A DNA stretch of 64,000 nt, taken from assembly GCA_030148865.1 (NCBI GenBank), contig JASBSR010000040.1, positions 62,518 through 126,517 of the forward strand. Reading direction: 5' to 3'. This document shows, one piece after another, positions 16,521-45,649 of this stretch. Position numbers and translations under genes: made by a program. Every line of letters begins with the position of its first letter. Positions within the stretch are counted from its first letter, which is position 1. Source of the DNA: Gammaproteobacteria bacterium (GTDB lineage: Bacteria > Pseudomonadota > Gammaproteobacteria > SZUA-229). Below the pieces are notes generated by a model. It saw only the letters and a list, made by a program, of their open reading frames with translations, was not told where the DNA came from and searched no databases.

Positions 16521-16533
16521 TTTGTTTGAACTG

Positions 16534-18609: not shown

Positions 18610-18635
18610 ATAATCTGCCGCTTCGGCACACCAAG

Positions 18636-27095: not shown

Positions 27096-28331
27096 CTATT
27101 CAGCAAAAGCCAGATAGTCGAGCACATCGCCTTCTTTAATTTCACGGCCCACTGGTATCACCACCAGACCCTCGGCCCAGCTCGCCGAACTCAGGACACC
27201 CGAGCCCTGTTTTGGATAGATTACCGCCCAGGACTCACCATCGCGCTGTTCGATGCGGGCGCGCAGGAATTCGCTGCGCTGCGCTGCACGCCAGGCAAAA
27301 CCTGCTTTCACAGAGATCGGCTTTGCCAGACATTCGCTTTCACCCTGTAACTGTCGAATCACTGGCCGGGCAAAAATCTGCGCGGTGACAAACACCGACA
27401 CCGGGTTGCCGGGCAGGCCGAGAAACAGTGCCTTGCCAATGCGGCCAAAGGCCACCGGCTTGCCCGGTTTCATCGCAATACGCCAGAGCACCAGTGTGCC
27501 CAGTTGTTGCAGTGCGCGGCGCACATAATCTTCTTCACCGACCGAAACGCCACCGCTGGTGAGAATCAGATCGGCCTCGGTGGCAGCCTGTTCGATCACT
27601 GCCAGTGTCGCCTCCATGCTGTCGGCGATGATGCCATAGTCGGTGATTTCGCAGTCCTGTGCCTGTAAAAAACCGTTCAGGGTATAGCGATTGGAATTGT
27701 AGATCTGACCATCAGCCAGCGGCTCGCCCGGGCTAACCAGCTCGTCGCCGGTAAAAAAACAGGCGACCTTGAGTCGGCGCACCACTTCGACTTCGGCGAT
27801 GCCGACCGAGGCGATCAAGCCCAGCTCCTGCGATCGCAGACGACGACCTGCATTCAGAATGATACTGCCCTGCTGAATGTCTTCACCAGTACGGCGGATA
27901 TTATCGCCGGCCTTCACGACAGCTTCGATGCGAACCTGATCGCTGTCTTCGCTACGTGTACAGCGTTCCTGCATCACCACCGCGTCCGCCCCCGGCGGGA
28001 TCGGCGCACCGGTAAAAATACGCGCCGCGGTGCCGGCTTTCAGTTCGACCCCGGAAGTGCCGGCAGGAATGCGCTGCGCCACGGTCAAAACTGCACCCGA
28101 CCGGGCGCAATCGGCGCTGCGCACCGCATAGCCGTCCATCGCGGAATTATCGTAACCTGGCACATTCAGGCTGGAGACCACAGCCTGCGCCAGCACTCGG
28201 TCACGTGCCTGCAACAGATTCAGTTTTTCACTGGCTGTCAGCACCGGGGTCTGCGCCAGCAGCTGCGCGATGGCCGCCTCGACCGAGAGCAGTGGTTCTG
28301 AATAACAGTCTTCTGGCTTTGCAGGACTCAT
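27096..28331 (-). CDS. moeA: Molybdopterin molybdotransferase
   Basis: 411 aa MoeA family (...GGVSVGEEDY..., four-domain layout). Confidence 0.85.
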   Translation of the reverse strand: MSPAKPEDCYSEPLLSVEAAIAQLLAQTPVLTASEKLNLLQARDRVLAQAVVSSLNVPGYDNSAMDGYAVRSADCARSGAVLTVAQRIPAGTSGVELKAGTAARIFTGAPIPPGADAVVMQERCTRSEDSDQVRIEAVVKAGDNIRRTGEDIQQGSIILNAGRRLRSQELGLIASVGIAEVEVVRRLKVACFFTGDELVSPGEPLADGQIYNSNRYTLNGFLQAQDCEITDYGIIADSMEATLAVIEQAATEADLILTSGGVSVGEEDYVRRALQQLGTLVLWRIAMKPGKPVAFGRIGKALFLGLPGNPVSVFVTAQIFARPVIRQLQGESECLAKPISVKAGFAWRAAQRSEFLRARIEQRDGESWAVIYPKQGSGVLSSASWAEGLVVIPVGREIKEGDVLDYLAFAE

Positions 28332-28337
28332 CGAGGT

Positions 28338-28856
28338 TTATTGCTCGAGCAATCGCGGCATCAGTTCGACCATATTGCAGGGCGCATTGCGATGGTCCAG
28401 CTGCGGCCCGATGATTTCGTCCCAGCCAGTTTTACAGGCACCGGTGGAACCTGGCAGACAGAAAATAAAAGTGGCATTGGCGACCCCGCCAAGCGCGCGC
28501 GAGGCCACAGTGGAGGTCTTGATGTCCTGATACGAAAGCCAGCGAAACAGCTCACCAACGCCTTCGATTTCTTTATCCAGCAATGGGCGAATCGCTTCCG
28601 GAGTGATATCGCGACCCGTAAGGCCGGTGCCACCGGTGATGATCACCACATTGACCCCGGGGTCGGCTATCCAGCGCGAAACCGTCTCGCGGATGCGATA
28701 TTTGTCGTCGACGATAATGGTTTTTTCCGCGAGCTGATGGCCAGCTTCGCTGATACGCTCGACCAGTATTTGCCCCGAAGTGTCCGTGGCTTCGGTACGA
28801 CTGTCAGACACGGTTAGCACCGCGATATTCACTGCAATAAAATTAGGTTCATTCAT
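28338..28856 (-). CDS. moaB: Molybdenum cofactor biosynthesis protein B (MoaB/Mog family)
   Basis: 172 aa MogA/MoaB fold with IITGGTG and GSTG motifs; 6 nt upstream of moeA. Confidence 0.8.
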
Positions 28857-29026: not shown

Positions 29027-29674
29027 GTGAGAAAGTTCGCGCTCGGATTCCACAATTTCACCACCCCTGTAGCGCTCTTTATCCTGATTGTGAGTTTTAT
29101 CGCAGGTATTTTGTTCTGGGGAGCGTTCAACACCATCCTTGAATTAACCAATACCGAAAGTTTCTGTATCTCCTGTCATGAAATGAGAGACAACGTATAC
29201 AAGGAATATCGTCACAGCGTCCATTTCGCAAATGCTACTGGAGTACGCGCCACCTGCCCGGATTGTCATGTGCCTAAAGAATGGACGCATAAAGTGGCCC
29301 GAAAAATTGCTGCCACCAACGAATTATTCCACCATTTTGCCGGTTCTATAGATACCACAGAAAAATTCACTGCAAAGCGTTTCGAACTGGCGCAGATCGT
29401 CTGGCGCGTTATGAAGGAAACCGATTCTCGAGAATGCAGAAACTGCCACAGCGAAACCGCGATGGCATTATCCAGGCAAAGACCCGCCGCTGCAGAACAA
29501 CATGAACTTGCCCAGCAACAGCACAAAACCTGCATCGACTGCCATAAAGGTATCGCACATGAACTGCCAGAAAAATTTCTGGCGGCTGAGCACGAGCGCT
29601 TTGAAAAAGAAAAAGTCGATTGCATACAATGCCATGCCGATATGGCACACGCCAAACCCGGCGATGAAATCTGA
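29027..29674 (+). CDS. nirT: NapC/NirT-family membrane-anchored tetrahaem cytochrome c quinol dehydrogenase
   Basis: 215 aa, GTG start. N-terminal TM helix, four CxxCH motifs (CISCH, CPDCH, CRNCH, CIDCH) with NapC-family spacing. Confidence 0.8.
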   Translation: MRKFALGFHNFTTPVALFILIVSFIAGILFWGAFNTILELTNTESFCISCHEMRDNVYKEYRHSVHFANATGVRATCPDCHVPKEWTHKVARKIAATNELFHHFAGSIDTTEKFTAKRFELAQIVWRVMKETDSRECRNCHSETAMALSRQRPAAAEQHELAQQQHKTCIDCHKGIAHELPEKFLAAEHERFEKEKVDCIQCHADMAHAKPGDEI

Positions 29675-29897
29675 TTTCCGGAAACCGCCACCATTTTCAG
29701 TCACTTAGCCGTGATTGAAAATTGGATGAATTATTCAAAGGGGACTGGGATATGTAGCAGTGTTCGACGCAGCGTTGAATAGTTCATTACTTTGGGAGCT
29801 TCTCTGGGGTTTTCTACGGATTATTGACTTACGTCATAAATAGCGAGCATATATACCGGTACTGTTGCACGGGAAAAACCACCCTCAGGAGTCCAGG

Positions 29898-30539
29898 ATG
29901 TCAGTCAAACTCGCGCTATCAGCCCTGCTCGTTGCGGTATCGTGCTATTCACCATTACTGCTGGCTGCAAATAAAGCAGAGATCGCACTAGGCGAACAAA
30001 TCTATAATCAGAATTGCTCGGTCTGTCACCAGGCAGATGCTATCGGCAAGCCCGGCTTTGCACCATCGCTCACAAATCCAGAATTGCTTCACATAGCATC
30101 CGATAAATTTTTTGAAGGCACGATTCGTGATGGCCGCGGTGGCACCGGTATGCCACCATTTAGCCACCTGGGTAGAAAAAACATCAAGGCCATTGTCGCC
30201 TATTTACGCTCACATACTGACAAGCCAAATATTGCCGAAAAAGTGAATAAACAACCCGATGCACACGGGGATCCTCGGCTCGGTAAGGAATGGTTCCATT
30301 CTATTTGTTCCACCTGCCACGGCGCCAATGGCGATGGCTATAGTGCAGGCGGTACTGGAACCGCCATTGGTAAAAAAGGTTTTCTCAGTAAGGTATCTGA
30401 TGGCTTTATTCGCACCACCATCAAACTGGGACGTTCTAACACACGCATGCTTGGTTTTCAGGGTGCCAGCGGTCTCGCCAATCTGAGTGACCGGGAAATC
30501 GACGACATCATTGTTTACTTACGCAGTCTGCCTGAATAA
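29898..30539 (+). CDS. Periplasmic dihaem cytochrome c (c4/c552-type, NirB-like)
   Basis: About 213 aa from the ATG at 29898 (RBS AGGAG). Signal peptide. Two class-I cytochrome c domains with CSVCHQ and CSTCHG about 110 residues apart. Confidence 0.75.
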   Translation: MSVKLALSALLVAVSCYSPLLLAANKAEIALGEQIYNQNCSVCHQADAIGKPGFAPSLTNPELLHIASDKFFEGTIRDGRGGTGMPPFSHLGRKNIKAIVAYLRSHTDKPNIAEKVNKQPDAHGDPRLGKEWFHSICSTCHGANGDGYSAGGTGTAIGKKGFLSKVSDGFIRTTIKLGRSNTRMLGFQGASGLANLSDREIDDIIVYLRSLPE

Positions 30540-30553
30540 AGAGGATCCTGATC

Positions 30554-33274
30554 ATGAAACGCTTCAAAATAAATCGACGTACCTTTCTCAAGGGCAGCGC
30601 ATTTATCACCGGCTCCACCGCAGGCGCGGGCTTGATGGTGGCTGCCAACCCTGAGCTGGAAGCCGCAACTTCAACGATTGATTCCGCTTCGCGCACCACT
30701 GCGCTGGCACAGTGCCCGTATTGCGGCGTTGGCTGCGGCACTGTGATTCAGGTCGAGAACGGAAAAATTGTATCCATGCGCCCGGACAAAGATCATCCGA
30801 CAAATTTCGGTCTGCAATGTATAAAAGGCCTGACCGCTGCCGAACCGATTTATGTCGATCGTATGGAAGGTGATTCTTATGTACGCAAAGATGTCTGGGA
30901 TGAATGGAACAAACCCGGTCACGGTGATCTCGCTTATGTAAGCAAAACCAAAGGCTCGTTTGATGAAGAACATTTTGTCCGCGTACCTTACAAAGCGGCG
31001 GGCGAAATGGTCGATCACAAGATCGCACACTTTGCGAAGAAAGACGGTGGCAACTCGATAGCACTGTATGGCTCTGGCCAGCTCACCATGGAAGGCCAGT
31101 ATCTTGAAAACCTGTTCATGAAGGGCGTACTAGGTTCCAATACCATTGAAGCCAATGCGCGTATGTGTATGACTTCGGCGGTCACCGGCTACTTTGCTAC
31201 CCTTGGCTCAGATACACCGCCTCTGGCCTATGAAGACATTGAGATGTGCGACATGATTATGCACTTTGGTCATAATGCACGCGAATCACACCCGATTATT
31301 TTCTGGCGCGCTGCTGATTATAAAAAGAAAAACGATATCCCCACCGTAGTGGTTGATCCGCGTCGTACCGGAACTGTAATGGGATACGAGGACATCAACC
31401 CAAAAAATACTGTACACGTTCCTATTCTCAACGGTGACATAAGTTTTCTTAACGCCATCGCGCACGTGCTGCTGAAAGACCACGACGATGTCATTGACTG
31501 GGAATTTCTCAAAGCCCACGCCAACGGCTGGAAAGATTACGTAGACGGCGTAAAAGCCAATTATAGTCCCGAACAGGTGCAGGATCGTATGGGTGGCCCT
31601 AATCACGATGTATCACCCGAACTCATCAGACGCGTCGCTGGCATGTTTGCCGACGCCACTCGTAAGCGTCTGGCCCGCAGCAAAGGCAAGCAAAATGCCA
31701 GTGAAAGTGGTGTACCCGGTGGTGATGGTTATGGTGGTGTCATCATCATGTGGGGTATTGGTTACAATCAGCACATTCACGGCCAGAACAATGTAATTTC
31801 AATCATTAACCTGCTGACACTGACCGGCAATCTGGCCAAACCTGGCTGTGGCCCGTTTTCAATGACCGGCCAGCCCAATGCCATGGGCGAACGTTTCACC
31901 GGCGGTTTAACCGGTCGTCTGCCTTTCAATCAGCCATTAAAAAATGCAGAGCATCGTTTACATATGGCCCAACACTGGCGGGTTCCAGAAAAAAATCTGG
32001 TGAATGCCATGAACTCTCAAAACCCGGGCATGGCTGTAGGCATGATGGAGCGAGCGTTGAAAGGCGATGTCAAAGCCATGTTTCTGGTCTATGCCACACA
32101 CATCGACTTGCCCGATCAGGAAAACCTTGTGCGCCCGGCATTAATGAAAACATTTAATGTGGTGCAGGAAATATATCGCCATGCACCCAATAATTTATAC
32201 GCCGATGTTATATTCCCGGCAGCAACCTGGGGTGAGGTTAACGGTGTTTATATCAGCTCTGAACGCCGGATCAATATCTGTGAACAGGCCGCTATGCCAC
32301 CCAAAGGCTGTTTACCCGATCTTGATATGGTCATCGACAAAGCCAAAGGGATTGGCGAATTACTCGGCCTCGACATGGAAAAAACCCTGCCCTACAAAAA
32401 AGGCAAGAATGGGTTTTACGATACTGAAGAAATTTTCCGCGATGTCTGCCGTGCATCCGAAGGTACTGATACTGATTTAACCGGCATACTCGAACGCGAA
32501 AAAGTCGATGGCATCTCACCGTATGAGCAGCTCAAGGAGCTGCGTGGCATCCAGTGGCCCGCACCGACCTACGCGATTGCCAAAGCAGGCGGTACCAAGC
32601 GTCGCTATATGCTGCAGGAAGGCAACTGGAAATCCAAACCCTACGGTTACTTCCGCACCAAGGATGGCAAGGTACACATGAAACTGTGCCAGCAGGATTA
32701 CAGTCAACGTGAAGCCGTGACCAAAAAACTGATGGAATTTGGTATCAAGAAAGATCTATACACGATTGACCATATCGACCTCATCAAGCAGGCGCGTGAT
32801 ATGGGGCTGACGCCCGACTTACCGGATGAAAAATATCGTGGCAAGCTCTGGCAGGATGTTCCCGATGACAAATTCCCCTACTGGTTTGGCCTCGGTGTTG
32901 TCTATGAGCATTTTCATACAGCCAAATCTAACCGTAGCCCGACTACACGACGGCTGGTGCCTGAAATGTATGTTGAAATGCACCCCGATGATGCCAAAGA
33001 TCTCGGCATCAAAGACGGCGACAAAGTACGGGTGGTGACTCGTCGTGGCTCACTGGAAGCCCGGGCACAGGTGGGCACTGCTAGTCTGGTTAAACCGGCA
33101 CGAAACAATGTACCACGCGGCTACATGTTCGGCCCCTGGAACCTGTCAGTTGCCGACAGCGCGGTACCGGAAAAAAATAAGTGGCTGGCGAATCGCGTTA
33201 CCAGCCGCGTCTGGGATCCCGTCTCGGGTCAGGTTGATTTCAAGAAATCAGCGGCACGCATAGAGAAAATATAG
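30554..33274 (+). CDS. napA: Periplasmic nitrate reductase catalytic subunit, long form
   Basis: 906 aa. Tat signal KINRRTFLKGSAF. FeS motif CPYCGVGCG (NapA: CRFCGTGCG), LQCIKGLT (LNCIKGYF), and GSGQLTMEGQY...NARMCMTSAVTG...HPIIF aligning with the NapA Mo-ligand Cys region. Confidence 0.85.
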   Translation: MKRFKINRRTFLKGSAFITGSTAGAGLMVAANPELEAATSTIDSASRTTALAQCPYCGVGCGTVIQVENGKIVSMRPDKDHPTNFGLQCIKGLTAAEPIYVDRMEGDSYVRKDVWDEWNKPGHGDLAYVSKTKGSFDEEHFVRVPYKAAGEMVDHKIAHFAKKDGGNSIALYGSGQLTMEGQYLENLFMKGVLGSNTIEANARMCMTSAVTGYFATLGSDTPPLAYEDIEMCDMIMHFGHNARESHPIIFWRAADYKKKNDIPTVVVDPRRTGTVMGYEDINPKNTVHVPILNGDISFLNAIAHVLLKDHDDVIDWEFLKAHANGWKDYVDGVKANYSPEQVQDRMGGPNHDVSPELIRRVAGMFADATRKRLARSKGKQNASESGVPGGDGYGGVIIMWGIGYNQHIHGQNNVISIINLLTLTGNLAKPGCGPFSMTGQPNAMGERFTGGLTGRLPFNQPLKNAEHRLHMAQHWRVPEKNLVNAMNSQNPGMAVGMMERALKGDVKAMFLVYATHIDLPDQENLVRPALMKTFNVVQEIYRHAPNNLYADVIFPAATWGEVNGVYISSERRINICEQAAMPPKGCLPDLDMVIDKAKGIGELLGLDMEKTLPYKKGKNGFYDTEEIFRDVCRASEGTDTDLTGILEREKVDGISPYEQLKELRGIQWPAPTYAIAKAGGTKRRYMLQEGNWKSKPYGYFRTKDGKVHMKLCQQDYSQREAVTKKLMEFGIKKDLYTIDHIDLIKQARDMGLTPDLPDEKYRGKLWQDVPDDKFPYWFGLGVVYEHFHTAKSNRSPTTRRLVPEMYVEMHPDDAKDLGIKDGDKVRVVTRRGSLEARAQVGTASLVKPARNNVPRGYMFGPWNLSVADSAVPEKNKWLANRVTSRVWDPVSGQVDFKKSAARIEKI

Positions 33275-33367: not shown

Positions 33368-33943
33368 ATGAAGCGTAGAACCGCACTCAAGTTCATTGGT
33401 TTTGGCGCAGCTGTAGCATTGCGCCCTGAAATGAGCATTGCGGCGACATCCAGTCCTGTATTACGATTCCTGAGGCCACCGGGCGCACTCACAGAAAATG
33501 AATTTCTGCAACGCTGTATTCACTGTGGCCAGTGTGGTGAGGCCTGCCCTAATCGTTGTATTAATTTTTTTGATCTGGAAAACGGCATTGCGTCGAGTGA
33601 CACGCCGTATATCATTCCTCGCGAAAAAGCCTGCATCCTCTGCATGAAATGTGGTGAGGTCTGTCCTACGGGTGCCATTCAAAAGGTTGCTGCCACCATG
33701 GCAGACATCATTAGCAAGGTTCACATGGGACGAGCCGTCGTCGATAGACAATTATGTTTATCGTGGCAGGGTAAAACCTGCGGTGTGTGTTACCGCGCCT
33801 GCAAGCTTCCTGATGTCGCCATTCGTGTCGGCATGCTTGAGCAACCGCATGTCCTCGATCATTGCGTCGGCTGTGGCCTGTGCGAGCGCTCGTGTATTCA
33901 AATACCTCAGGCCATCCGCATCGTACCTGATGTTTCAGCATGA
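33368..33943 (+). CDS. napG: NapG-like Tat-exported four-cluster ferredoxin
   Basis: 191 aa. Tat motif KRRTALKF. Four ferredoxin motifs (CIHCGQCGEACP, CILCMKCGEVCP, CGVCYRAC, CVGCGLCERSC). Confidence 0.8.
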   Translation: MKRRTALKFIGFGAAVALRPEMSIAATSSPVLRFLRPPGALTENEFLQRCIHCGQCGEACPNRCINFFDLENGIASSDTPYIIPREKACILCMKCGEVCPTGAIQKVAATMADIISKVHMGRAVVDRQLCLSWQGKTCGVCYRACKLPDVAIRVGMLEQPHVLDHCVGCGLCERSCIQIPQAIRIVPDVSA

Positions 33944-34926
33944 ACGGGGACAACATCAAACCCTTTTTTCTCTGGAAACATTTAAATAAACTACGTTGGC
34001 TGAGTTTGATCAGCATTTTTACCGTGCTGATTTATTTACCTTATGCGCATCTTTATCAAACCTATGAATCGGCACATGCCTATGACCTACTGGCGGACTC
34101 AGAAAAATTCATCTATGACACGATGGAAACAATCACCTCGCCTTTTATCGATGACCCGATAGAAGATCTCGACGCGATCAAGGGCAACACCTGGTCAGGA
34201 ACATTTTTCGGATTTAAACTGAGCGATCCACTTGCGGTTATCTCGCAGATATTTTCTGGCATGACCATTTACACAGCATTTTTATTGACTGCGGCATTAC
34301 CTGTATTATTAACGTTTGTATTCGGACGTTTTTTCTGTGGCTGGATTTGCCCGGCGACATTTTTATATGAGCTCAACACCAACCTGGCGGCGGGCTTAAG
34401 ACGTGCTGGACTAAAAACAGGCAACCGGCGTTTTGATCGCCGTGCCAAATATCTTGTGCTCACTATTGGCCTGATACTCTCCGCCATCAGTGGCTCAGTG
34501 CTGGCCGCAAACATTTACCCACCAGCGATTATTGGTCGAGAAATTTATTATGCAATCGCCTTAGGCGGATTCGGCACGGGTGCGGTTTTTTTCGTCGCCA
34601 CGCTGATGTTCGACCTACTGGTCGCTCGTCGCGGTTTCTGTCGCTACTTGTGTCCGGGCGGCGCACTGTATTCCATACTCGGGCGTTTCCGCCTGGTTCG
34701 CATCCAGCGTGTTGTCGAAAACTGCAATGACTGCGCCAAGTGCAATGCCATCTGCGAATTTGGACTTGACCCGCTGCGCGATGATTTTGGGCAGGAGTGC
34801 AACAACTGTTCTGCGTGCATAGCTATCTGCCCCACTGACGCCCTCACCTTCAAAATCCGGATGACAGACAGCCATTTTCAGGGCCCGGGCCATCTAGGCC
34901 GGCAATACAGTAAAGCGGCCAGATAA
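33940..34926 (+). CDS. napH: NapH-like membrane quinol dehydrogenase subunit
   Basis: 328 aa with 4 TM helices, FCGWICP and FCRYLCPGGA motifs, and two C-terminal ferredoxin motifs (CNDCAKCNAICEF, CNNCSACIAICP). Overlaps the napG stop. Confidence 0.8.
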   Translation: MNGDNIKPFFLWKHLNKLRWLSLISIFTVLIYLPYAHLYQTYESAHAYDLLADSEKFIYDTMETITSPFIDDPIEDLDAIKGNTWSGTFFGFKLSDPLAVISQIFSGMTIYTAFLLTAALPVLLTFVFGRFFCGWICPATFLYELNTNLAAGLRRAGLKTGNRRFDRRAKYLVLTIGLILSAISGSVLAANIYPPAIIGREIYYAIALGGFGTGAVFFVATLMFDLLVARRGFCRYLCPGGALYSILGRFRLVRIQRVVENCNDCAKCNAICEFGLDPLRDDFGQECNNCSACIAICPTDALTFKIRMTDSHFQGPGHLGRQYSKAAR

Positions 34927-35534
34927 TGCTGCGTCGTAATTTTATTCAGCAAATCGTTTTCAGCACGGGCGTGCTGATGGCATCAACCCTGCCTTACGGT
35001 TTTAGTCGACTGCTGGCACCCGAAGTTAAAGCCGACCCTTCAAGACAGTTAAGACCGCCGGGGGCTTTAAAGAATGACCAGGCTTTTATCGAAGCCTGTA
35101 TCGGCTGTGGCTTATGTGGTGAAGCGTGTCCACCAAAGTGTATCAAGTTTTATCAACGTGATGGCGGTAGTAAGCATAATACGCCATACATTAATCCAGA
35201 GGAGAAAGCCTGTATACTGTGTAACAAGTGCATGGAGGTTTGCCCGACCAAGTCATTAACCCTGATACCCAGAGAAAACATTGACATGGGTATTTCACAG
35301 ATAGACCGACTCGCCTGTTATCCCTGGGTAGACCGTGGAATTTGCGGCGCCTGCGTCAGCATTTGTCCGTTGGGTGAACACGCCATTGGCTTTGAAATGT
35401 GGGGACAGTACCGGCCAACGGTAAAAAGTGGCTGCGTCGGCTGCGGTCTTTGCGTAGAAGTTTGCCCGCACCCCAGTCTACCGATCAGAATAGTCGAGCG
35501 ATCACAGGGCACTGTCATGAGACACCAGATATGA
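34926..35534 (+). CDS. Second NapG/MauM-like Tat ferredoxin (paralog of napG)
   Basis: 202 aa, RRNFI Tat-like motif. LRPPGALKNDQAFIEACIGCGLCGEACP...EKACILCNKCMEVCPT parallels the same positions in napG. Four clusters. Confidence 0.7.
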   Translation: MLRRNFIQQIVFSTGVLMASTLPYGFSRLLAPEVKADPSRQLRPPGALKNDQAFIEACIGCGLCGEACPPKCIKFYQRDGGSKHNTPYINPEEKACILCNKCMEVCPTKSLTLIPRENIDMGISQIDRLACYPWVDRGICGACVSICPLGEHAIGFEMWGQYRPTVKSGCVGCGLCVEVCPHPSLPIRIVERSQGTVMRHQI

Positions 35535-36115
35535 AACTGCTTAAATTGCTTGCCGTATTGCTCGCATGCCTTGTCTGGAGTGAAGCCGGCTTCGCGCATC
35601 ACGTCCTCGGTCGCCCCTCATATAGTCTTGGCGAAGATTCAAACACTCCCCCCGGTATGCAGATTGATACCCAAATCGGTAATTATTTTGTCACCTATAT
35701 GATATTTCCTGCATTTCCAAAAGCAGGCGAACGTGGTCGTGTCAACCTCTATGCCACCCGTCTTGACAACGGGAAGGCTTTGACCGGGCAGGTCGCATTT
35801 AAAGTTCGCGATGATGTGATGTTCGGCGACAACAACGAAGAAGTGCTGGGCACACAATCTCCCGATGACAGTGTTTTTCGTCAGGGTTTTGTTTTTAGCG
35901 GCGATGGCAAATACATTATTACGGCTGAATTTACCGCCGATGGCGAACCCTATAGTATTGATTTTCCCTTGCGCATAGGTCCACCAAATTCAATAGGCCC
36001 GATCGGTTTTGCTGTTGGTGCCATTTTGATTGTTCTGATCGGCGTCAATCTGATACAACGCAAACGCCTGTTGCATACCAAAATTCGGCGTGCTCACGAG
36101 GAAACCTCGCGATGA
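35531..36115 (+). CDS. Periplasmic single-pass membrane protein, possible CopC/YtkA/FixH-like metal-binding fold
   Basis: About 194 aa from the ATG at 35531. Signal peptide cleavable after AGFA would give a mature N-terminus HHVLG (His1, as in CopC-type proteins). C-terminal TM anchor IGPIGFAVGAILIVLIGV followed by basic residues. Confidence 0.4.
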   Translation: MKLLKLLAVLLACLVWSEAGFAHHVLGRPSYSLGEDSNTPPGMQIDTQIGNYFVTYMIFPAFPKAGERGRVNLYATRLDNGKALTGQVAFKVRDDVMFGDNNEEVLGTQSPDDSVFRQGFVFSGDGKYIITAEFTADGEPYSIDFPLRIGPPNSIGPIGFAVGAILIVLIGVNLIQRKRLLHTKIRRAHEETSR

Positions 36116-37644
36116 CGATGACACACCCGGGATTACCCGATTTTTGGGGGCTGATTATCATTAGCCTCATGTTGCTCGGTGTTATCTGGGTGGTATTTTC
36201 CCCACTCCCTGCACAGTTTAATCTCTCTACCTTCAGTCTCGCGCGGCTGCCGCTGCTGGGGCGTGGTTTTCGTAAACTGAGCGCAAGCCGCTGGTTACTG
36301 TTCTCGCTAAAGCTCATTGTTGTTGGGTTTTTTTTATTAATTATCATTGCGGGTCTTTTTGGCACGCCGATAGCGGAGCGCAACATTGCTACCGTACTCA
36401 CCTGGAACCTGTGGTGGTCAGGCCTGGTTTTTTCTATATTTTTCCTGGGCTCTGCATGGTGTGCCGTCTGTCCCTGGGATACGCTGGCACAATGGCTGGT
36501 TAAACGAAAGTTGTGGAAACGTCACCATCAAATCACCAGCCTGAACTTGCGCGTGCCGCGCTGGCTACAGAATGTATGGCCTGCGCTCGCTCTATTTATC
36601 ATACTCACCTGGCTTGAGCTGGGTGTCGGCATCACCAGCAATCCTTACGCCACCGCTGCAGTTTCTTTATTAATGGTTGTGCTCGCGACAATTTCACTCG
36701 CCCTTTTTCAGCGGAAAGCGTTTTGCCGTTACTTTTGTCCAGTCGGACGCACAGTGGGTTATTACTCGCAACTGGCACCTGTTGAACTGCGTCCAATCAA
36801 CCATGATGTATGCCTGAACTGTAAAACCCTGGACTGCTACCACGGCACTGATGAAGTTGAACCCTGTCCAACCTGGCTGGTCATGGGCCGCCTGCAACAA
36901 AACAGTTATTGCACCTCTTGTGGTAACTGCAGCCAGAGTTGTCCGCATGAAAATATCGCCTGGCGTTTACGCTCACCCAGTGTTGAAGCTCTGCACAGCG
37001 CGCGCCCACATTGGGATGAATCCTGGTTTATGATTGGCCTGCTGGCACTCACTGGTTTTCATGGACTCACCATGATGCCATTCTGGGAAATCTGGATGAG
37101 CGACCTGGCTCGTGTTATTGGCGACTCAGGCCGCTTATTATGGAGCTTTTCACTCGGACTGACTGCCAGTGTTGCTGTGATAGCGAGCACCTACGCAATA
37201 CTGGTTGCAATCACAAAAAATGTACTCGGCACCGATTTGCCATTTAAACGAATGTTCTCCAACTTTGCATTTGTTTCATTACCACTTGCCTTTTCCTATC
37301 ACATGGCACACAACCTGAATCATCTAATCCGTGAAGCCGGAAATATTGGCTCAGTATTTCTCAACCCGCTCGGCATTGACACATTACCACTGAGCATGAT
37401 GGAGAAACATCAACGACAGATAGACATGTGGCTCTCGCAGGATGTGATTTTCTCTATCCAGGCGGGTTTAATGATCTTTGGTTTCTGGATTGCACTCCAG
37501 GTGGTACGTTATCGCGGTTTTAAACTTGTCCCCGCCGGCACAAGTTTTGCCAGCCTGCGATTATTCCCCATCCTGATGTTTGCAATTCTGGTAACCGGAT
37601 TCCATCTCTGGTTATTGATGCAACCCATGATCATGAGAATGTAA
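36112..37644 (+). CDS. Polytopic NapH/MauN/CcoG-family membrane polyferredoxin (510 aa, atypical architecture)
   Basis: About 10 TM helices. CAVCPWD and FCRYFCPVG motifs typical of the NapH/CcoG family. Central ferredoxin motifs CLNCKTLDC...CP and CTSCGNCSQSCP, followed by about five further TM helices. Confidence 0.65.
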   Translation: MTMTHPGLPDFWGLIIISLMLLGVIWVVFSPLPAQFNLSTFSLARLPLLGRGFRKLSASRWLLFSLKLIVVGFFLLIIIAGLFGTPIAERNIATVLTWNLWWSGLVFSIFFLGSAWCAVCPWDTLAQWLVKRKLWKRHHQITSLNLRVPRWLQNVWPALALFIILTWLELGVGITSNPYATAAVSLLMVVLATISLALFQRKAFCRYFCPVGRTVGYYSQLAPVELRPINHDVCLNCKTLDCYHGTDEVEPCPTWLVMGRLQQNSYCTSCGNCSQSCPHENIAWRLRSPSVEALHSARPHWDESWFMIGLLALTGFHGLTMMPFWEIWMSDLARVIGDSGRLLWSFSLGLTASVAVIASTYAILVAITKNVLGTDLPFKRMFSNFAFVSLPLAFSYHMAHNLNHLIREAGNIGSVFLNPLGIDTLPLSMMEKHQRQIDMWLSQDVIFSIQAGLMIFGFWIALQVVRYRGFKLVPAGTSFASLRLFPILMFAILVTGFHLWLLMQPMIMRM

Positions 37645-38252
37645 TGGATCGCCGCGCATTTTTTAAAACCACGTTCAATAAAAGCACGAAGACAATCGTG
37701 GATGAAGCCAGCCGACGCGTCAACAAAAAAGCGTCGCGCTGGATTCGACCGCCGTTTGCCATCGATGAGCTCGATTTTTTACTCGCCTGCACTCGCTGCG
37801 GTGATTGTGGTGTGGCCTGTCCACACGAGGTCATATTCGACCTGCCAGCCCGTCTCGGTGCCAGGGTCGCCGGCACTCCGGCGCTGGATTTACTCAACAA
37901 GGGCTGCCATTTATGTAGCGACTGGCCCTGTGTCAACGCCTGTAGCCCCGGCGCTTTAGCGATCAAAATTACCGAGAATGAAAGCGCGAACACTGATACT
38001 CAGCCAGCCTCTGAGCTACCGAGACTGGCGGTCGCAGCGATCGACTCAGTCACCTGCCTGCCCTTCCACGGGCCTGAGTGTGGTGCCTGTATTCCATCCT
38101 GCCCGGTACCTGGCGCACTGTCGCTGGCGGTGACCCGGCCAGTGATTAATTCAGCACTGTGCACAGGCTGCGGCCTGTGTCGGGAAAACTGTATAGTCGA
38201 ACCCGGAGCGATTCGTATCAAATCGTTGTATACTATCAAGGCGCATACATAA
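37644..38252 (+). CDS. Third NapG/MauM-like Tat ferredoxin
   Basis: 202 aa. Tat motif DRRAFFKTT. IRPPFAIDELDFLLACTRCGDCGVACP and three further Cys clusters. Confidence 0.7.
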   Translation: MDRRAFFKTTFNKSTKTIVDEASRRVNKKASRWIRPPFAIDELDFLLACTRCGDCGVACPHEVIFDLPARLGARVAGTPALDLLNKGCHLCSDWPCVNACSPGALAIKITENESANTDTQPASELPRLAVAAIDSVTCLPFHGPECGACIPSCPVPGALSLAVTRPVINSALCTGCGLCRENCIVEPGAIRIKSLYTIKAHT

Positions 38253-38339: not shown

Positions 38340-39347
38340 ATGGCAAGCTTACGAAACACTACAGATCCCGGCATGCTGATTGATCCATTTGGCCGCAGGA
38401 TCGAGTATTTGCGCCTGTCGGTGGCCGATAAGTGCAATCTGCGCTGTTTCTATTGTCTGCCCGAAGGCCACAAAGATTTCGAGCAACCCGATCACTGGCT
38501 GAGGTTTGACGAAATTGAACGTGTCATCAAAGCTTTCGCCGAACTCGGTGTTGGCCGCGTGCGCCTCACCGGCGGAGAACCTCTGGTGCGCAAAAATCTG
38601 CACCAGTTGGCTGCGAGTTTGAGTGCTCTACCCGGCATTGAGGATCTTTCGCTCAGCACCAATGCTGTATTGCTGGAACGGCACGCAGAAAATCTATTCA
38701 AGGCTGGCGTAAAACGTATTAACGTCAGTCTCGACAGCCTGAATCCCGAACGTTTCAAAGCTATCACCGGTGGTGAACTGGCAGCTGTATTATCTGGTTT
38801 GCAGGCCGCGCGCCGGGTCGGTATCGCACCGATCAAAATCAATATGGTCGCGATGAAAGGCATCAATGATGATGAGTTCGAAAACATGGTGACCTATTGT
38901 CTGGCGAACGATTTCACTCTACGCCTGATCGAAACCATGCCGATCGGCAGCACTGGCGTCACTGCCAGCGACCACTATCTCGATTTACAGGACGTGAAAA
39001 AAAATCTCAGCGAACGTTTCGATTTAATCCCCGGTGTCATGCCAGGCGGTGGCCCGGCACGCTATATGCAGATGCGCAACGAAAATTTACGCATCGGTTT
39101 TATCACACCCATTTCACAGCACTTTTGCGAAACCTGTAACCGCGTGCGACTGTCCGTCGATGGTACTTTGTATATGTGCCTCGGCCAGGAAGACAACATG
39201 GAGCTACGCCCTTTGCTACGCGCCGGTATTAGTGATGATGGCTTAAAACAGGCCATTTTTGCCGCGATTGCGCTTAAACCCGAAAAACACGAGTTCAAAA
39301 ATAAACCCGGCCAGGTGGTGCGTTTTATGAGCATGACCGGCGGCTAA
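38340..39347 (+). CDS. moaA: GTP 3',8-cyclase (molybdenum cofactor biosynthesis protein A)
   Basis: 335 aa radical SAM protein with CNLRCFYCLPEG and a C-terminal second cluster (CETCNRVRLSVDGTLYMCLG). Confidence 0.9.
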   Translation: MASLRNTTDPGMLIDPFGRRIEYLRLSVADKCNLRCFYCLPEGHKDFEQPDHWLRFDEIERVIKAFAELGVGRVRLTGGEPLVRKNLHQLAASLSALPGIEDLSLSTNAVLLERHAENLFKAGVKRINVSLDSLNPERFKAITGGELAAVLSGLQAARRVGIAPIKINMVAMKGINDDEFENMVTYCLANDFTLRLIETMPIGSTGVTASDHYLDLQDVKKNLSERFDLIPGVMPGGGPARYMQMRNENLRIGFITPISQHFCETCNRVRLSVDGTLYMCLGQEDNMELRPLLRAGISDDGLKQAIFAAIALKPEKHEFKNKPGQVVRFMSMTGG

Positions 39348-39550: not shown

Positions 39551-41287
<1,737 letters not shown>

Positions 41288-41295
41288 TGGCCTGC

Positions 41296-41330
41296 CTGCG
41301 GGCAGTCATCGACTGTCCGCAGCATTTTTA
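41296..41330 (+). terminator. Hairpin plus T tract after nirS (terminator or attenuator)
   Basis: ctgcgggcagtc-atc-gactgtccgcag (12-bp stem, one mismatch) followed by cattttta. Confidence 0.5.
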
Positions 41331-41342
41331 AGGAACAGCAAC

Positions 41343-42137
41343 ATGCACAACGAAGGTTTTGTTTCACTGGTTGGCGCAGGTCCTGGCGATGTTGAGCTAC
41401 TGACAGTAAAAGCCCTGCGTTTGATTCAACAGGCTGAGGTTATAGTTTACGATCGTCTTATATCGGGCGATATTCTCAAACTGATACCAGCAGGTGTCAG
41501 TCGTATCGCAGTTGGCAAATCTCCTGGTGCACACTGCCTGCCACAGAATGATATCAATGAAATCATGATTAATCTCGCCACAGCAGGTCGTCGCGTGGTA
41601 CGACTCAAGGGGGGTGACCCTTATCTGTTTGGCCGTGGCAGCGAAGAGGCGCTGGCGCTTAAAAAACACCATATCAAATTTGAAGTCGTACCCGGCATAA
41701 CAGCAGCATTCGGTTGCAGTGCCTATAGCGGCATACCTCTGACACATCGCGGCCTGAGCCGTAGTGTGAAATTCATCACTGGCCACTTCAGCAACGATGA
41801 AGCGCTCGAGTATGACTGGGAAAAACTCGCCGACCAGGATTGCACCCTGGTGTTTTATATGGCGATGGCGAATCTATTAACTATTTGCAGTCAATTGATT
41901 AATGCTGGATTAGATGCAGGCACACCCGCCGCTGCAGTTGAAAATGGAACCACGCAATCACAACGACGTATCATTTCAACATTAGGCCTGCTCTTTGCCG
42001 AAGTGAGTGCACAGAGAATACAGGCACCTGCGATGATTATTATCGGCAATGTGGTTTCACTCGCTACAGACATCGACTGGTTTCAGCAATCACTGGAGAT
42101 GACAGTCTATGACGAAAGTCTCGCTGCCAGTCGCTAG
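41343..42137 (+). CDS. nirE: Uroporphyrinogen-III C-methyltransferase (haem d1 / sirohaem branch)
   Basis: 264 aa SUMT with GAGPGDVELLTVKA and RLKGGDPYLFGRG motifs. Confidence 0.8.
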   Translation: MHNEGFVSLVGAGPGDVELLTVKALRLIQQAEVIVYDRLISGDILKLIPAGVSRIAVGKSPGAHCLPQNDINEIMINLATAGRRVVRLKGGDPYLFGRGSEEALALKKHHIKFEVVPGITAAFGCSAYSGIPLTHRGLSRSVKFITGHFSNDEALEYDWEKLADQDCTLVFYMAMANLLTICSQLINAGLDAGTPAAAVENGTTQSQRRIISTLGLLFAEVSAQRIQAPAMIIIGNVVSLATDIDWFQQSLEMTVYDESLAASR

Positions 42138-42438
42138 TATGATATTAATCGGCACGATACTAATGATGAACACCAGTATCGCCGATGTCAGTGTCGCACG
42201 TCAGACTGAGCTGGTGTATCTACTCAGACAGGATTGCGGCTCGTGTCATGGTATGACTCTCAGGGGTGGCCTCGGCCCAGCCCTGCTACCCGAGTTGCTG
42301 ATCGGTAAATCAGAACAGTTTCTTAGCACGACTATTCTCGAAGGTCGTCCTGGCACAGCGATGCCAGCGTGGAAGGGCATGTTGAACAAAGCTGATGCCA
42401 GCTGGCTGGCGCATCAGCTGCAACGGGGCGTGCAATGA
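42109..42438 (+). CDS. nirC: Monohaem cytochrome c55X
   Basis: 109 aa, signal peptide, CGSCHG. Canonical position between nirE and nirF. An alternative ATG at 42139 is possible. Confidence 0.65.
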   Translation: MTKVSLPVASMILIGTILMMNTSIADVSVARQTELVYLLRQDCGSCHGMTLRGGLGPALLPELLIGKSEQFLSTTILEGRPGTAMPAWKGMLNKADASWLAHQLQRGVQ

Positions 42439-43601
42439 TAATCCGCGTGTTTTGTGCCATTACGCTGATGTTATCAGCAAATTTGCTGCACGCTCGTGGT
42501 ACTGGCGATCTCGGTATCGTGATTGAACGTGCGAGCGGTAGCATGCAAATTATCGAAACCACAGGCAACAGCAGCCTTGGCCGAATTGAAGGTCTTGGTG
42601 ATCTGTCTCATGCCTCTGCGGTGTACTCACGCGATGAACAATTCGTGTATATCTTCGGTCGCGATGGCGGACTGAGCAAAATCGACCTGCTGGATAAAAA
42701 ACTGGTGAAACGCGTGATGCAGGCCGGCAACAGTATTGGCGGTGCCATATCGCAGGATGGCACACTGGTTGCGGTATCAAATTACACGCCCGGCGGAGTA
42801 AAAATATTTGACGCTGGCACAATGCAGCTGGTCGCTGACATTCCAGCCAGCTATGGTGACAGCACTCTACAGTCAAAAGTCATAGGCCTCGTGGATGCAC
42901 CCGGCCAGAAGTTTGTCTTTAGTCTGTGGGATGCGGGCGAAATCTGGGTCGCAGACCTAGCAGACAGATCAAATCCTGTTATCACAAAATTCAAAAACAT
43001 CGGCAGCAATCCTTACGATGCTCTGATTACACCTGATGGACGATACTATATCGCCGGCCTGTTCGGCGAAGATGGCATGGCATTGCTTGACTTATGGAAC
43101 CTGGACTCGGGCGTGAAACGCATTCTCAACCACTATGGCAAGGGTGAACAAAAACTTCCGGTGTACAAAATGCCACACCTCGAAGGCTGGGCGATTGCAG
43201 GAAGATATACTTTTGTGCCAGCGGTGGGCCACCATGAAGTACTGGTGATCGATACTCAAACCTGGAAGGAAAAATGCCGTATCGAGGTTCATGGCCAGCC
43301 GGTATTTGTTATGGCACGTCCCGATGGTCGCCACGTCTGGGTCAATTTTGCAGTACCTGACAACAACACTTTGCAGGTAATTGATACCCAGTCGTTAAGT
43401 ATTATCAAAACATTAACACCCGGCAAAGGCGTACTGCACATGGAGTTCGAGCCCCGTGGCGAACAGGTCTGGGTATCGGTGCGCGATGAAGATCGTGTTG
43501 CCGTGTTTGATACCAGTAACTTCAGACAAATCACCACCCTGCCAGCAAGAAAACCCAGCGGTATTTTTTTCACCTCGCGCGCACATAAAACAGGTCTGTA
43601 A
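42435..43601 (+). CDS. nirF: NirF, haem d1 biosynthesis dehydrogenase (cd1-like beta-propeller without a haem c domain)
   Basis: 388 aa, signal peptide, d1-type propeller repeats similar to the NirS C-terminal domain. Confidence 0.75.
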   Translation: MIIRVFCAITLMLSANLLHARGTGDLGIVIERASGSMQIIETTGNSSLGRIEGLGDLSHASAVYSRDEQFVYIFGRDGGLSKIDLLDKKLVKRVMQAGNSIGGAISQDGTLVAVSNYTPGGVKIFDAGTMQLVADIPASYGDSTLQSKVIGLVDAPGQKFVFSLWDAGEIWVADLADRSNPVITKFKNIGSNPYDALITPDGRYYIAGLFGEDGMALLDLWNLDSGVKRILNHYGKGEQKLPVYKMPHLEGWAIAGRYTFVPAVGHHEVLVIDTQTWKEKCRIEVHGQPVFVMARPDGRHVWVNFAVPDNNTLQVIDTQSLSIIKTLTPGKGVLHMEFEPRGEQVWVSVRDEDRVAVFDTSNFRQITTLPARKPSGIFFTSRAHKTGL

Positions 43602-44068
43602 TGAACAAAATCGATGTATTGAACACGCTTGAAAAAAATCTTCTGAATAACTTTCAGCATGATATGAGTTTATCGACCATGCCCTATGCTGATATCGCCA
43701 GAGACCTCGGTGTTGGCGAAGACAAAATTATTAGCACATTGACAGAGTTACAGAACAGGGGTTACATCAGTCGCATTGGGCCTGTATTTACCGCCAATCG
43801 CATCGGTGTCAGCACCCTGGCCGCCATGGCAATACCCGATGACGAGCTGGAATGCGTGGCGCGTATCATCAGCACCTTTCCAGAAGTGAATCATAACTAT
43901 GAGCGCGAGCATCATTATAATTTGTGGTTCGTGGTCACCGCCTGTAGCGAAGAGCATCTGGACATCGTGTTGCACGAGATTGAACAACATGCCGAACATC
44001 CATTAATGTCATTACCAATGCTGGAAGACTATTTTATCGACCTGGGATTCAAACTGCCATGGGCATAA
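43601..44068 (+). CDS. nirD: Sirohaem decarboxylase subunit NirD (Lrp/AsnC-like)
   Basis: 155 aa, AsnC-type HTH plus ligand-binding domain. Head of the nirDLGH set. Confidence 0.7.
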   Translation: MNKIDVLNTLEKNLLNNFQHDMSLSTMPYADIARDLGVGEDKIISTLTELQNRGYISRIGPVFTANRIGVSTLAAMAIPDDELECVARIISTFPEVNHNYEREHHYNLWFVVTACSEEHLDIVLHEIEQHAEHPLMSLPMLEDYFIDLGFKLPWA

Positions 44069-44643
44069 TGCAGGCCAATCAGTTAGTCGCTCAACTTTCA
44101 GTTGATGACCGCAAACTGGTCAAACTAATTGAGCATGGCATTCCAGTCACCAGGAGGCCCTATGCCGAAATCGCACAACAGCTGGGAATTACCGAGCAGA
44201 TGGTAGTTGCACGCATTCAGGCGCTGATACACAGTACAGCGATAAAACGCTACGGAGTAGTTGTACGTCATCATGAACTCGGTTACAAAGCCAACGGTAT
44301 GGTAGTGTGGAATATCCCCGATGAGTCTGTCAGTGAAATTGGAAAATGTATTGGTGAATATAATTGTGTGACCTTAAGCTACCGTCGACCACGACGCCTG
44401 CCAGACTGGCCCTATAATTTATTCACCATGGTGCACGGCCAGAACCGCGAAGCAGTCATCGCACAGGTGAACCACATCGTGCAGCGGTGTAATTTGAGCC
44501 ACATTGAACACACCATTTTATTTAGCATGCGTCGCTTCAAGCAACGTGGCGCTAAATACACCCGAATGGAACATGCTACAGATCATACAGCAAGTCCACT
44601 ATCAGAAAATCTGAAATCAATTAAACAGCGAGCACACGTATGA
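44059..44643 (+). CDS. nirL: Sirohaem decarboxylase subunit NirL
   Basis: 194 aa Lrp/AsnC-like paralog; overlaps nirD. Confidence 0.7.
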   Translation: MGIMQANQLVAQLSVDDRKLVKLIEHGIPVTRRPYAEIAQQLGITEQMVVARIQALIHSTAIKRYGVVVRHHELGYKANGMVVWNIPDESVSEIGKCIGEYNCVTLSYRRPRRLPDWPYNLFTMVHGQNREAVIAQVNHIVQRCNLSHIEHTILFSMRRFKQRGAKYTRMEHATDHTASPLSENLKSIKQRAHV

Positions 44644-45638
44644 CACAGTCACCTGACAAACTCAATGAGCTTGAAACTGCTCTGATCAACCAGTATCAGG
44701 GCGGCTTTCCGTGTTGTGCATTGCCCTTTGCCGAAATTGCACACAAACTTAACAGCAGTGAAGCAAAAATTATTGACACAATACAACGACTGATCGATGC
44801 CGGCTGGTTGACACGCTTCGGCCCTCTGTACGATGCGGCCGCACTTGGTGGCGGCCTGACGCTGGCGGCAGTCTCTGTAGATGAGGCAGACTACGATAGA
44901 ATCGCGGGCATTATTAACCACTATCCTCAGGTGGCGCACAATTATCGACGCGAACATCAGCTCAACATGTGGTTTGTACTCGCCACTGAAACACCTGAAG
45001 CCATTCAAGATATAATTGACAATATCGAGTCAAGCACCGGGCTGCAAGTTTACAACTTTCCCAAACTACACGGGTTTTACGTTGGGCTCTGGCTACACCT
45101 TGCCAATGATCGGGTCAGCACGATTCCCTTACCAGAAAACCCAATCGAAACCATCCCTTATCATCAGCAGAATCTGGACAAAAAAATTATTCACCTCACT
45201 CAGGCAGGTCTGCTGCTGACCAGTCAGCCCTATGCCGAAATCGCCAGAAGCATCGGAAGCTCTACCGAAATGGTCCTTAATCGTATGCAACATATGCTGG
45301 CCAGCGGAGTTATTCGCCGTATTGGCGCGGTGCCCAATCATTACAAACTGGGGCTAAAAGCCAACGGCATGTCTGTCTGGCATGTAAGCGAAAAAAATAT
45401 TAGACAATTTGGCAACCTCATCGGTACTTTTAATTTTGTCAGCCACTGTTATCAGCGTCCACAGCATTTACCTGAATGGCGTTACAACCTGTTTGCCATG
45501 GTGCACGGTCACGACCGTGATGAAGTTGATAAAAAAGTGGCCCGCATTGCCGATACTCTCGGCGATGACTGCACTGCCTATGAAGTACTTTATAGCAGTG
45601 CAATTCTTAAGAAAACCGGCATACGACTGGTCGCCTGA
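44640..45638 (+). CDS. nirGH: Fused NirG-NirH sirohaem decarboxylase subunits
   Basis: 332 aa with two tandem Lrp/AsnC-like repeats. The first half resembles NirD/G, the second NirL/H, including the shared motif HNY(R/Q)R.H.LNMWF. Confidence 0.7.
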   Translation: MTQSPDKLNELETALINQYQGGFPCCALPFAEIAHKLNSSEAKIIDTIQRLIDAGWLTRFGPLYDAAALGGGLTLAAVSVDEADYDRIAGIINHYPQVAHNYRREHQLNMWFVLATETPEAIQDIIDNIESSTGLQVYNFPKLHGFYVGLWLHLANDRVSTIPLPENPIETIPYHQQNLDKKIIHLTQAGLLLTSQPYAEIARSIGSSTEMVLNRMQHMLASGVIRRIGAVPNHYKLGLKANGMSVWHVSEKNIRQFGNLIGTFNFVSHCYQRPQHLPEWRYNLFAMVHGHDRDEVDKKVARIADTLGDDCTAYEVLYSSAILKKTGIRLVA

Positions 45639-45649
45639 GGATCAATCAC

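Follow-up and report, generated by a model that had tools for sequence, protein, structure and literature searches.

What do two conserved, unannotated membrane proteins contribute to a gene cluster that otherwise resembles those for periplasmic nitrate reduction? The question is raised by a 64,000-nucleotide stretch of DNA (the window) from a gammaproteobacterium of the SZUA-229 lineage (assembly GCA_030148865.1, contig JASBSR010000040.1, positions 62,518 to 126,517 of the forward strand). Within the window, four consecutive plus-strand genes follow those for a NapA-like molybdenum (Mo) enzyme, NapG and NapH, and are referred to here as G1 (34926–35534, 202 residues), G2 (35531–36115, 194 residues), G3 (36112–37644, 510 residues) and G4 (37644–38252, 202 residues). 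The four genes belong to a conserved operon, (napC)–cytochrome c–napA*–napG–napH–[G1]–G2–G3–G4, of which they make up the distal half; it represents a distinct and widespread nap-like operon type with a new two-protein membrane redox unit, G2–G3. As to the function of that unit, the reading that we place first, tentatively and at somewhat under an even chance, is that G2–G3 acts as a metal-dependent, probably copper-dependent, periplasm-directed electron-transfer accessory of the NapGH dehydrogenase.

G1–G4 are real genes and not chance open reading frames (ORFs), because G3 has more than 1,100 clusters of homologues (the best 120 full length, with 61–84% identity) and G2 has 1,351 homologues. 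An earlier note on this DNA, made without database searches, had placed the four-gene set at 34926–38252, where all four ORFs are present and strongly conserved; the start of G2 was derived by hand from the ORF list and agrees with the 194-residue structure model. Start and stop codons overlap by 1 or 4 nucleotides along the whole chain from NapG to G4 (33940/33943, 34926, 35531/35534, 36112/36115 and 37644), while a scan for promoters and terminators gave no usable operon boundary. A G3 relative was present in 233 species in a scan of one genome per species, and the window proteins were mapped onto the best 80 loci. The order dihaem cytochrome c, ~900-residue Mo enzyme, NapG, NapH, [G1], G2, G3, G4 was kept in all 51 informative loci (those with at least 6.6 kb of upstream flank), which removes the idea of a free-standing four-gene module. 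G2 was present at 74 of 76 loci and G4 at 71 of 74. The earlier note had named orthologues in ccoGHIS/fixGHIS or mau operons as the observation that would point to a known function, and such a context was found at 0 of the 51 loci. Carriers include the cultured Photobacterium indicum, P. frigidiphilum and Thiohalobacter sp. IOR34, along with many metagenome-assembled genomes of Gamma-, Beta-, Zeta- and some Alphaproteobacteria; Thiogranum is also among the homologues.

Nor do G1, G2, G3 and G4 constitute a unit. G1 was missing from 11 of 50 complete clusters and from 16 loci overall, about a fifth (L003, L011, L021, L031, L034, L039, L046, L050, L052, L053, L057, L068, L070–L072 and L079), where NapH is followed directly by G2. 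The second NapG, missing from an operon sub-lineage, is therefore an accessory acquisition or loss. The unit conserved in distant relatives is instead NapH–G2–G3–ferredoxin, seen in that form, with no Mo enzyme close by, in L086, as Mo enzyme–NapG–NapH–G2–ferredoxin–G3 in L084, as NapG–NapH–G2 and a YHS-bearing G3 in L092, and as a NapH::G2 fusion followed by G3 in L088. In L091, three G2-like genes precede a NosL::G3 fusion, also with no Mo enzyme close by. Further, G2 and G3 are fused in one protein (P0316), and NapH, G2 and G3 occur in a single chain in two others (P0337 and P0296). G2 and G3 are thus an obligate pair with a physical tie to NapH. Both three-part chains contain an internal hydrophobic segment (residues ~320–350 in P0337) that ends in ATHA↓HH, a signal-peptidase-like site, which suggests that cleavage inside the polyprotein may free an N-terminal His-His. 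The tandem G2-like genes of L091 (2567–4187) encode single-pass proteins with a signal peptide, an Ig-like domain and a C-terminal helix, one with the mature N-terminus HMPAGY, and are flanked by a PAS histidine kinase and a PadR-like regulator.

G3 combines a NapH-type core with a new C-terminal membrane domain. The CxxCP and FCRYFCP signatures and the roughly five extra transmembrane (TM) helices beyond the ferredoxin motifs, were all read correctly from the single sequence: G3 has an invariant AWCAVCPW motif, the FCRYFCP motif and eight more invariant Cys, enough for two [4Fe-4S] clusters. Against the NapH/MauN models (TIGR02163 and NF007013), G3 scored 43.3 bits (cut-off 213; match over residues 106–282 only) and 34.3 bits (cut-off 234), and it shares 23% identity with the window NapH over 121 residues. 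These scores set G3 apart from canonical NapH/MauN, whose architecture it shares in part only; a MauN assignment is also at odds with the nap-like context of all 51 informative loci. Like NapH, G3 carries its Cys-Pro motifs at the cytoplasmic membrane face together with two cytoplasmic [4Fe-4S] motifs. Unlike NapH, it has 10 predicted TM helices rather than four, an outward N-terminus with the HPGLP motif, a CxxCP in place of the first CxxxCP (leaving one CxxxCP) and a 220-residue C-terminal domain. Of the CcoG/FixH label that had been attached to the genes, the NapH-type core stood and family membership did not. G3 had no match to the CcoG/FixG/RdxA model (TIGR02745) at E ≤ 0.01, a model that the window NapH matches weakly, contains no FixG_C domain in Pfam and lies in a cco context in 0 of 51 loci. 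The NosR model gave 17 bits only.

Hydropathy and the positive-inside rule place both termini of G3 outside. Residues 1–10 contain no Lys or Arg and include the periplasmic MTHPGLP, the loops at 30–61, 121–151 and 463–483 are Lys/Arg-rich and cytoplasmic, and the Fe-S domain (200–303) is cytoplasmic, as in NapH (PMC5449189). The outward N-terminus is confirmed, independently of hydropathy, by two fusions (P0278 and P0286) in which a signal peptide and a periplasmic domain are joined directly to an internal MTHPGLP and TM1. A Sec/Tat dual-targeted NapH–NapG fusion polyferredoxin (PMC5449189) was considered as an explanation and rejected, as its architecture is different.

The new C-terminal domain comprises the last five helices of G3 (residues ~295–510). 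The residues H317, M321/M322, H397, H400, H404, R407/E408, H433 and H498 and a C-terminal QPMxMRM are invariant, and all of these polar residues map to the outer membrane half or to loops on the periplasmic side, which is also the side of the invariant N-terminal HPGLP. Throughout the family, the motif [M/H]x[H/M]PG[L/I/M]P recurs before TM1 and resembles MxxMPGM, the Cu(I) loop of CopC/PcoC/CrdA (PMC9182242). The domain itself matched no family in Pfam (E ≤ 10), NCBIfam or the PDB. A profile of the domain searched against 1.84 billion representative proteins recovered 862 clusters at E ≤ 1e-3, and the domain was C-terminal in every case. Among 73 full-length relatives, 46 have a NapH-type Fer4_5 core, the only feature recognised by NCBIfam in ten superfamily members. 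N-terminal fusions to YHS (four), HMBD (one), NosL (one) and weakly YtkA-like (two) domains lend support to the metal-related role that the earlier note had raised, and cytochrome c or c554 domains occur in five of the relatives. Many superfamily members begin with a signal peptide and then A↓HG. A second, unannotated architecture of the same superfamily consists of Fe-S-free relatives with a signal peptide and A↓HGFG.RY.LP (L087 8001–9185, L093 3074–4555 and L095 1087–2586). Some Fe-S-free versions lie beside cupredoxin-like genes (L093; Cupredoxin_1, 1.4e-9), and that of L087 in a metal-resistance island on a conjugative element with two P-type ATPases, a CDF protein, an Nramp protein and ArsR-type regulators. 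The contexts of L085, L089, L090 and L097 were uninformative or came from frameshifted assemblies, and a tblastn search of plasmids with the domain returned one weak match (Sagittula) in an uninformative context.

G2 is the periplasmic partner, a protein with a signal peptide, a mature His-His N-terminus (HHVLGRP) and a single C-terminal TM helix. In all its orthologues the signal peptide ends in a small residue directly before the invariant His-His; the longer motif HH[VI]LGRP is found in 68 of the 79 sequences taken from the loci, and all 98 sequences from the databases have H23/H24. An AlphaFold2 model built from those 98 sequences (predicted local distance difference test, pLDDT, 86.8) has a beta-sandwich at residues 28–149 followed by a long C-terminal TM helix. 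In a Foldseek search, CrdA, a member of the CopC/PcoC family (PMC9182242), was the sole match at E ≤ 1e-3, and CcoH appeared only at E 0.03. The CopC likeness proposed earlier thus survives in the beta-sandwich fold and in the CopC-type N-terminal His exposed by signal-peptide cleavage, but not as membership by sequence. G2 has no Pfam or NCBIfam match, and the mature protein none in Pfam even at E ≤ 10; among its orthologues no match to FixH (PF05751) or DUF1775 was found, and three of 98 match YtkA-like (PF13115), all at E ≥ 0.029. Profile searches of the PDB with the G2 and G3 alignments returned only a generic Fe-S motif (RnfB, 0.016). As a pair, G2 and G3 are probably copper-binding, and they occur in hundreds of bacterial species.

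In the electron-transfer reading favoured here, G2 and G3 together would be a membrane-bound extension of the NapGH quinol dehydrogenase. G3, as a paralogue of NapH, would carry two [4Fe-4S] clusters on the cytoplasmic side, with the NapF-like G4 as their probable servicing partner, and would couple them through the new five-helix domain to a periplasm-facing His/Met site made up of the HPGLP N-terminus, FH317G-MM, YH397xxH400NxxH404, H433, H498 and the C-terminal QPMxMRM. On the periplasmic face of G3 would sit G2, a beta-sandwich in the style of CopC/YcnI that is anchored in the membrane and leaves its N-terminal His-His free. The site may bind copper, and reducing equivalents would pass from the membrane and cytoplasmic side (the NapH-type core and G4) to the periplasmic Nap machinery, where NapG/G1, the cytochrome c and the Mo enzyme would be recipients. 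The purpose could be an auxiliary electron input or a reductive (re)activation, in a manner similar to the service of NosR or NosB to NosZ; we infer the identity of the metal and the direction and purpose of electron flow. This reading is ranked first because a single mechanism covers the linkage to nap, the fusions with NapH and with cytochromes, and the metal features. The hints of a metal are the invariant His-His after the signal-peptidase site, the MxxMPGM-like motif, the YHS, HMBD, NosL and YtkA-like fusions, the metal-resistance island of L087 and the cupredoxin-like neighbours, while the cytochrome c/c554 fusions in five relatives and the NapF-like G4 are hints of electron transfer.

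Several results weigh against it. Neither the operon nor the 64-kb window encodes a copper enzyme, which leaves a copper role without an obvious client. The structure model of G3 is poor (pLDDT 54), so the spatial clustering of its His and Met residues follows from topology only. Across the whole C-terminal-domain superfamily only H397 and H400 are conserved, and the conserved His of G3 could just as well be haem b ligands or form the lining of a quinol site. Neither protein joins a copper family by sequence, as G2 has no Pfam match to CopC (PF04234) and an hhalign probability of 0.7% against E. coli YobA, and the C-terminal domain of G3 has no Pfam match to CopD (PF05425) at E ≤ 10 and 10% against E. 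coli YebZ. Literature searches returned no description of the operon or of the G2–G3 pair and no expression, genetic or biochemical data.

Some of the same evidence could be read as metal handling. The pair might acquire, reduce or deliver copper or another metal as a periplasm-facing analogue of CcoG/CcoH or CopC/CopD (YcnI/YcnJ), in which G2 captures Cu(II) by a histidine brace and G3 reduces and/or translocates it with Fe-S and G4 electrons; the nap linkage would then reflect metal supply, buffering or protection of the denitrification apparatus and not a flow of electrons to the Mo enzyme. We regard this as unlikely, with a modest chance of being correct. CcoG is a NapH-like cupric reductase, and CcoG/CcoH (FixG/FixH) act in the assembly of cbb3 oxidase. 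Similar to that pair, G2–G3 joins a NapH-like polyferredoxin to a single-pass Ig-like periplasmic protein with a suspected copper connection, though G2, which lacks a FixH domain, is anchored by a C-terminal helix after its signal peptide is cleaved. The domain fusions, the L087 island, the cupredoxin neighbours and the CrdA-like fold and His-His of G2 would all suit a metal-handling role, and YcnI of B. subtilis, which binds Cu(II) through an N-terminal histidine brace, has the architecture of G2, in which cleavage of a signal peptide exposes an N-terminal His and a beta-domain is followed by a TM anchor at the C-terminus (PMC12362106). As in CopC/PcoC/CrdA with CopD and in YcnI with YcnJ, G2 pairs with a His-rich polytopic partner, and the G3 N-terminus bears the MxxMPGM-like motif, but no Pfam CopC, CopD, DUF1775 or YtkA match was above threshold, and the partner is Fe-S-bearing and sits in a respiratory operon. 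Against metal handling are the strict linkage to Mo, Fe-S and haem enzymes with no copper protein in the operon or window, the lack of CopD or CcoG homology in G3, and the confinement of the polar residues of G3 to the outer half of the membrane, so that no continuous transport path is evident; the cytochrome c fusions are a better fit to electron transfer. The ferrous-iron system FtrABCD combines a P19 protein with the polyferredoxin FtrD; it is set apart by description only, as the operon contains no Ftr1-type permease, cupredoxin FtrB or RExxE motifs.

Electron transfer could also occur with no metal site of this kind. G2–G3 would then be part of a second quinol dehydrogenase, or of an electron conduit through the membrane, that is metal-free. 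The extra helices of G3 would bind haem b, house a quinol site or supply a proton path by which the NapGH step conserves energy, with G1 as the periplasmic ferredoxin, G4 as the cytoplasmic one and G2 as a structural subunit. The NapH-type core with its Fe-S motifs, the NapG and NapF paralogy of G1 and G4, the cytochrome fusions in relatives and the occurrence of the module without a Mo enzyme in L086 are consistent with such a conduit, as are His residues on three helices at a similar depth with the conserved R407 and R509 near, an arrangement known from haem b sites. However, G1 is dispensable and G2 is not, the universal HxxH sits on one helix only, which is atypical of bis-His haem ligation, and the invariant free His-His, the Met-rich periplasmic motifs and the metal-domain fusions are left without explanation. 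A conduit of this type is accordingly rated as rather improbable.

Compared with known systems, the favoured electron-transfer accessory would function most like NapGH/NapF, and its concept resembles, by analogy, NosR or clade II NosGH/NosB. In common with NapGH and NapF of the E. coli and Wolinella succinogenes nap operons, the set has a NapH-type core (in G3), a NapG paralogue (G1) and a NapF-like protein (G4), encoded in a nap-type operon next to genuine homologues of NapG and NapH, but canonical nap operons have no counterpart of the G2-like subunit. NosR and NosB/NosGH are, like G3, membrane polyferredoxin-type or polytopic accessories of one periplasmic reductase. G3 differs from NosR in that it has no flavin-binding domain, and the client differs from NosZ in that it is Mo-based and not copper-based. 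NosB, polytopic and uncharacterised, has conserved His motifs and acts with the NapGH-like NosGH; some versions are fused to NosL (PMC9697520), and so is one relative of G3. Compared by published motifs only, LNHYIGM and YGHN of NosB (PMC9697520) are arranged differently from YHxAHNxxH of G3. The conclusion of the earlier note that no characterised complex matches these proteins stands.

The two ferredoxins of the set are not alike. Each contains four Cys4 motifs (G1 has 16–17 Cys and four [4Fe-4S] motifs), and G1 and G4 are 42% and 34% identical, respectively, to the window NapG. G1, at 96.7 bits against the NapG models (NF007012 and TIGR00397; cut-off 269), keeps both the motif and the hydrophobic region of a twin-arginine translocation (Tat) signal. 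Measured as the maximal 12-residue hydropathy after the RR motif, the median Tat core was 1.60 for G1, 1.66 for NapG and 0.07 for G4, and all 72 orthologues of G4 have the RR motif with no hydrophobic region behind it. Without this core G4 does not make a credible Tat substrate, and its candidacy as an exported NapG was rejected. Its N-terminus instead reads MDRRAFFK, a charged hydrophilic stretch and then RWIRPPxAxxELxFLLACTRC, the pattern of NapF. The G4 scores fall under the cut-off for both NapF (TIGR00402; 62.6 bits, 3.8e-17, cut-off 102.2) and NapG (108.6 bits, 2.7e-31). G4 is probably a NapF-like, cytoplasmic four-cluster ferredoxin that is not Tat-exported, and the description of two more Tat-exported NapG paralogues is therefore half right, holding for G1 and not for G4. 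NapF itself is cytoplasmic, carries four clusters and has been implicated in the maturation and Fe-S assembly of NapA, and membrane attachment of NapF in W. succinogenes requires NapH (PMC10609526, citing Kern & Simon 2009).

The proximal half of the operon, also on the plus strand, defines the likely client. A class-I dihaem cytochrome c of CcoP/c4-like type (29865–30539; Pfam Cytochrom_C and Cytochrome_CBB3 in two stretches) occupies the NapB position, and in 53 loci such a gene immediately precedes that of the Mo enzyme; the operon has neither napB nor napD. It is followed by the 906-residue, Tat-exported NapA-like Mo enzyme (30554–33274), predicted to be of the bis(pyranopterin guanine dinucleotide) type, by a NapG-like four-cluster ferredoxin (33368–33943; NapG equivalog 1.3e2 bits, under the cut-off), predicted to be Tat-exported on the basis of an RR motif and a hydrophobic core, and by a NapH-like membrane polyferredoxin (33940–34926; NapH equivalog 154 bits, cut-off 234) with two CxxxCP motifs. 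A NapC/NirT-type tetrahaem quinol dehydrogenase (29027–29674; Pfam Cytochrom_NNT, 2.1e-76) is a variable member, found on one side or the other of the cluster in 28 related loci. The upstream gene had been called napA. The Mo enzyme is indeed NapA-like, but it is divergent, scoring 307–334 bits against NapA equivalogs with cut-offs of 904–930 (TIGR01706 and NF010055; 334 against 904 at best). It is 77–90% identical across loci from Gamma-, Beta- and Zetaproteobacteria, has E. coli NapA as its best PDB match (6.7e-74) and, aligned to that protein, retains a Tat signal and the [4Fe-4S] motif, together with the Cys-Met of RxCMxSAV, the NapA/Nas active-site motif that holds the Mo-ligand Cys. By sequence it is nitrate-reductase-like and not a canonical NapA, and the operon is predicted to encode a divergent periplasmic nitrate-reductase-like enzyme. 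This clade (29865–33274) seems to be uncharacterised in its own right. In L002 a NarX/NarL-type sensor pair adjoins the Mo enzyme, and in the window nirS and haem d1 genes come after it; both contexts add to its nitrate-reductase-like character.

Genes for molybdenum cofactor (Moco) biosynthesis stand on both sides of the cluster. Just upstream, moeA and moaB are divergent (27096–28856, minus strand), and just downstream is moaA (38340–39347, plus strand, called as an ORF), a frequent neighbour with a MoaA-like gene downstream in at least eight related loci; the operon of the Mo enzyme thus sits within a set of Moco genes. That G4, tethered by G3, assembles or repairs the Fe-S and Moco centres of the NapA-like precursor before Tat export, with G2–G3 having no catalytic role in electron transfer, would agree with these flanking genes, with the absence of napD and with the NapH-anchored NapF of W. 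succinogenes implicated in NapA Fe-S assembly (PMC10609526), but is very unlikely, as it does not explain the invariant periplasmic features of G2 and G3, the NapH–G2–G3 fusions or the modules without a nearby Mo enzyme in L086 and L091.

As the earlier note reported, the four genes lie downstream of napAGH and upstream of moaA and nirS, and genes for haem d1 also follow in the window. The suggestion that they donate electrons specifically to NirS was rejected, as nirS is close by in only a few loci and the linkage to the NapA-like enzyme is strict (51 of 51). The nirS locus of the window (39575–48414) is complete, with the haem d1 genes NirE-like, NirF-like, NirDL-like and radical-SAM NirJ-like and a second cd1-type protein, NirN-like (46819–48414). 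Elsewhere in the window, a dsr-type set (1810–10188) that includes DsrM-like (Nitrate_red_gam), DsrK-like (Fer4_8), DsrL-like (Pyr_redox_2 and Fer4_20) and NrfD/DsrP-like proteins and a CobB/CobQ-type amidase (DsrN-like) marks the organism as a sulfur oxidiser of the reverse Dsr type. A further cluster (14344–20376) encodes phosphofructokinase, adenylate kinase, a membrane H+-pyrophosphatase and ATP sulfurylase and has the look of a module for pyrophosphate economy that accompanies the oxidation of sulfur to sulfate.

Polyferredoxins of the NapH/NosR/CcoG type serve many periplasmic respiratory enzymes. To our knowledge no structure of them exists, and the wider question is how they move electrons from Fe-S clusters that face the cytoplasm to their periplasmic partners. 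The operon variant described here, carried by at least 233 species representatives that include cultured Photobacterium, Thiohalobacter and Thiogranum and abundant marine sulfur oxidisers, adds two conserved unannotated subunits with invariant periplasmic His/Met features. A bolder form of the argument, in which G2–G3 is an unrecognised class of copper-cofactored transmembrane electron conduit that unites NapH-type Fe-S clusters with a histidine-brace/His-Met copper centre, is doubtful, with a modest chance of being correct. If it were true, a widespread form of periplasmic nitrate respiration in sulfur-oxidising and other Proteobacteria would be copper-dependent, and the pair would be the first tractable model of NapH/NosR/CcoG-type electron passage across the membrane. 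Should G2 and G3 prove to be copper-binding, nitrate reduction by a major route in oxygen-minimum zones, vents and sediments would rely on that metal, and the G2–G3 family would open the passage across the membrane to genetic study. At the least, the genes routinely annotated as 'napA/napGH' in the carriers belong to a distinct, uncharacterised enzyme system, the mechanism of which is experimentally accessible in cultured carriers.

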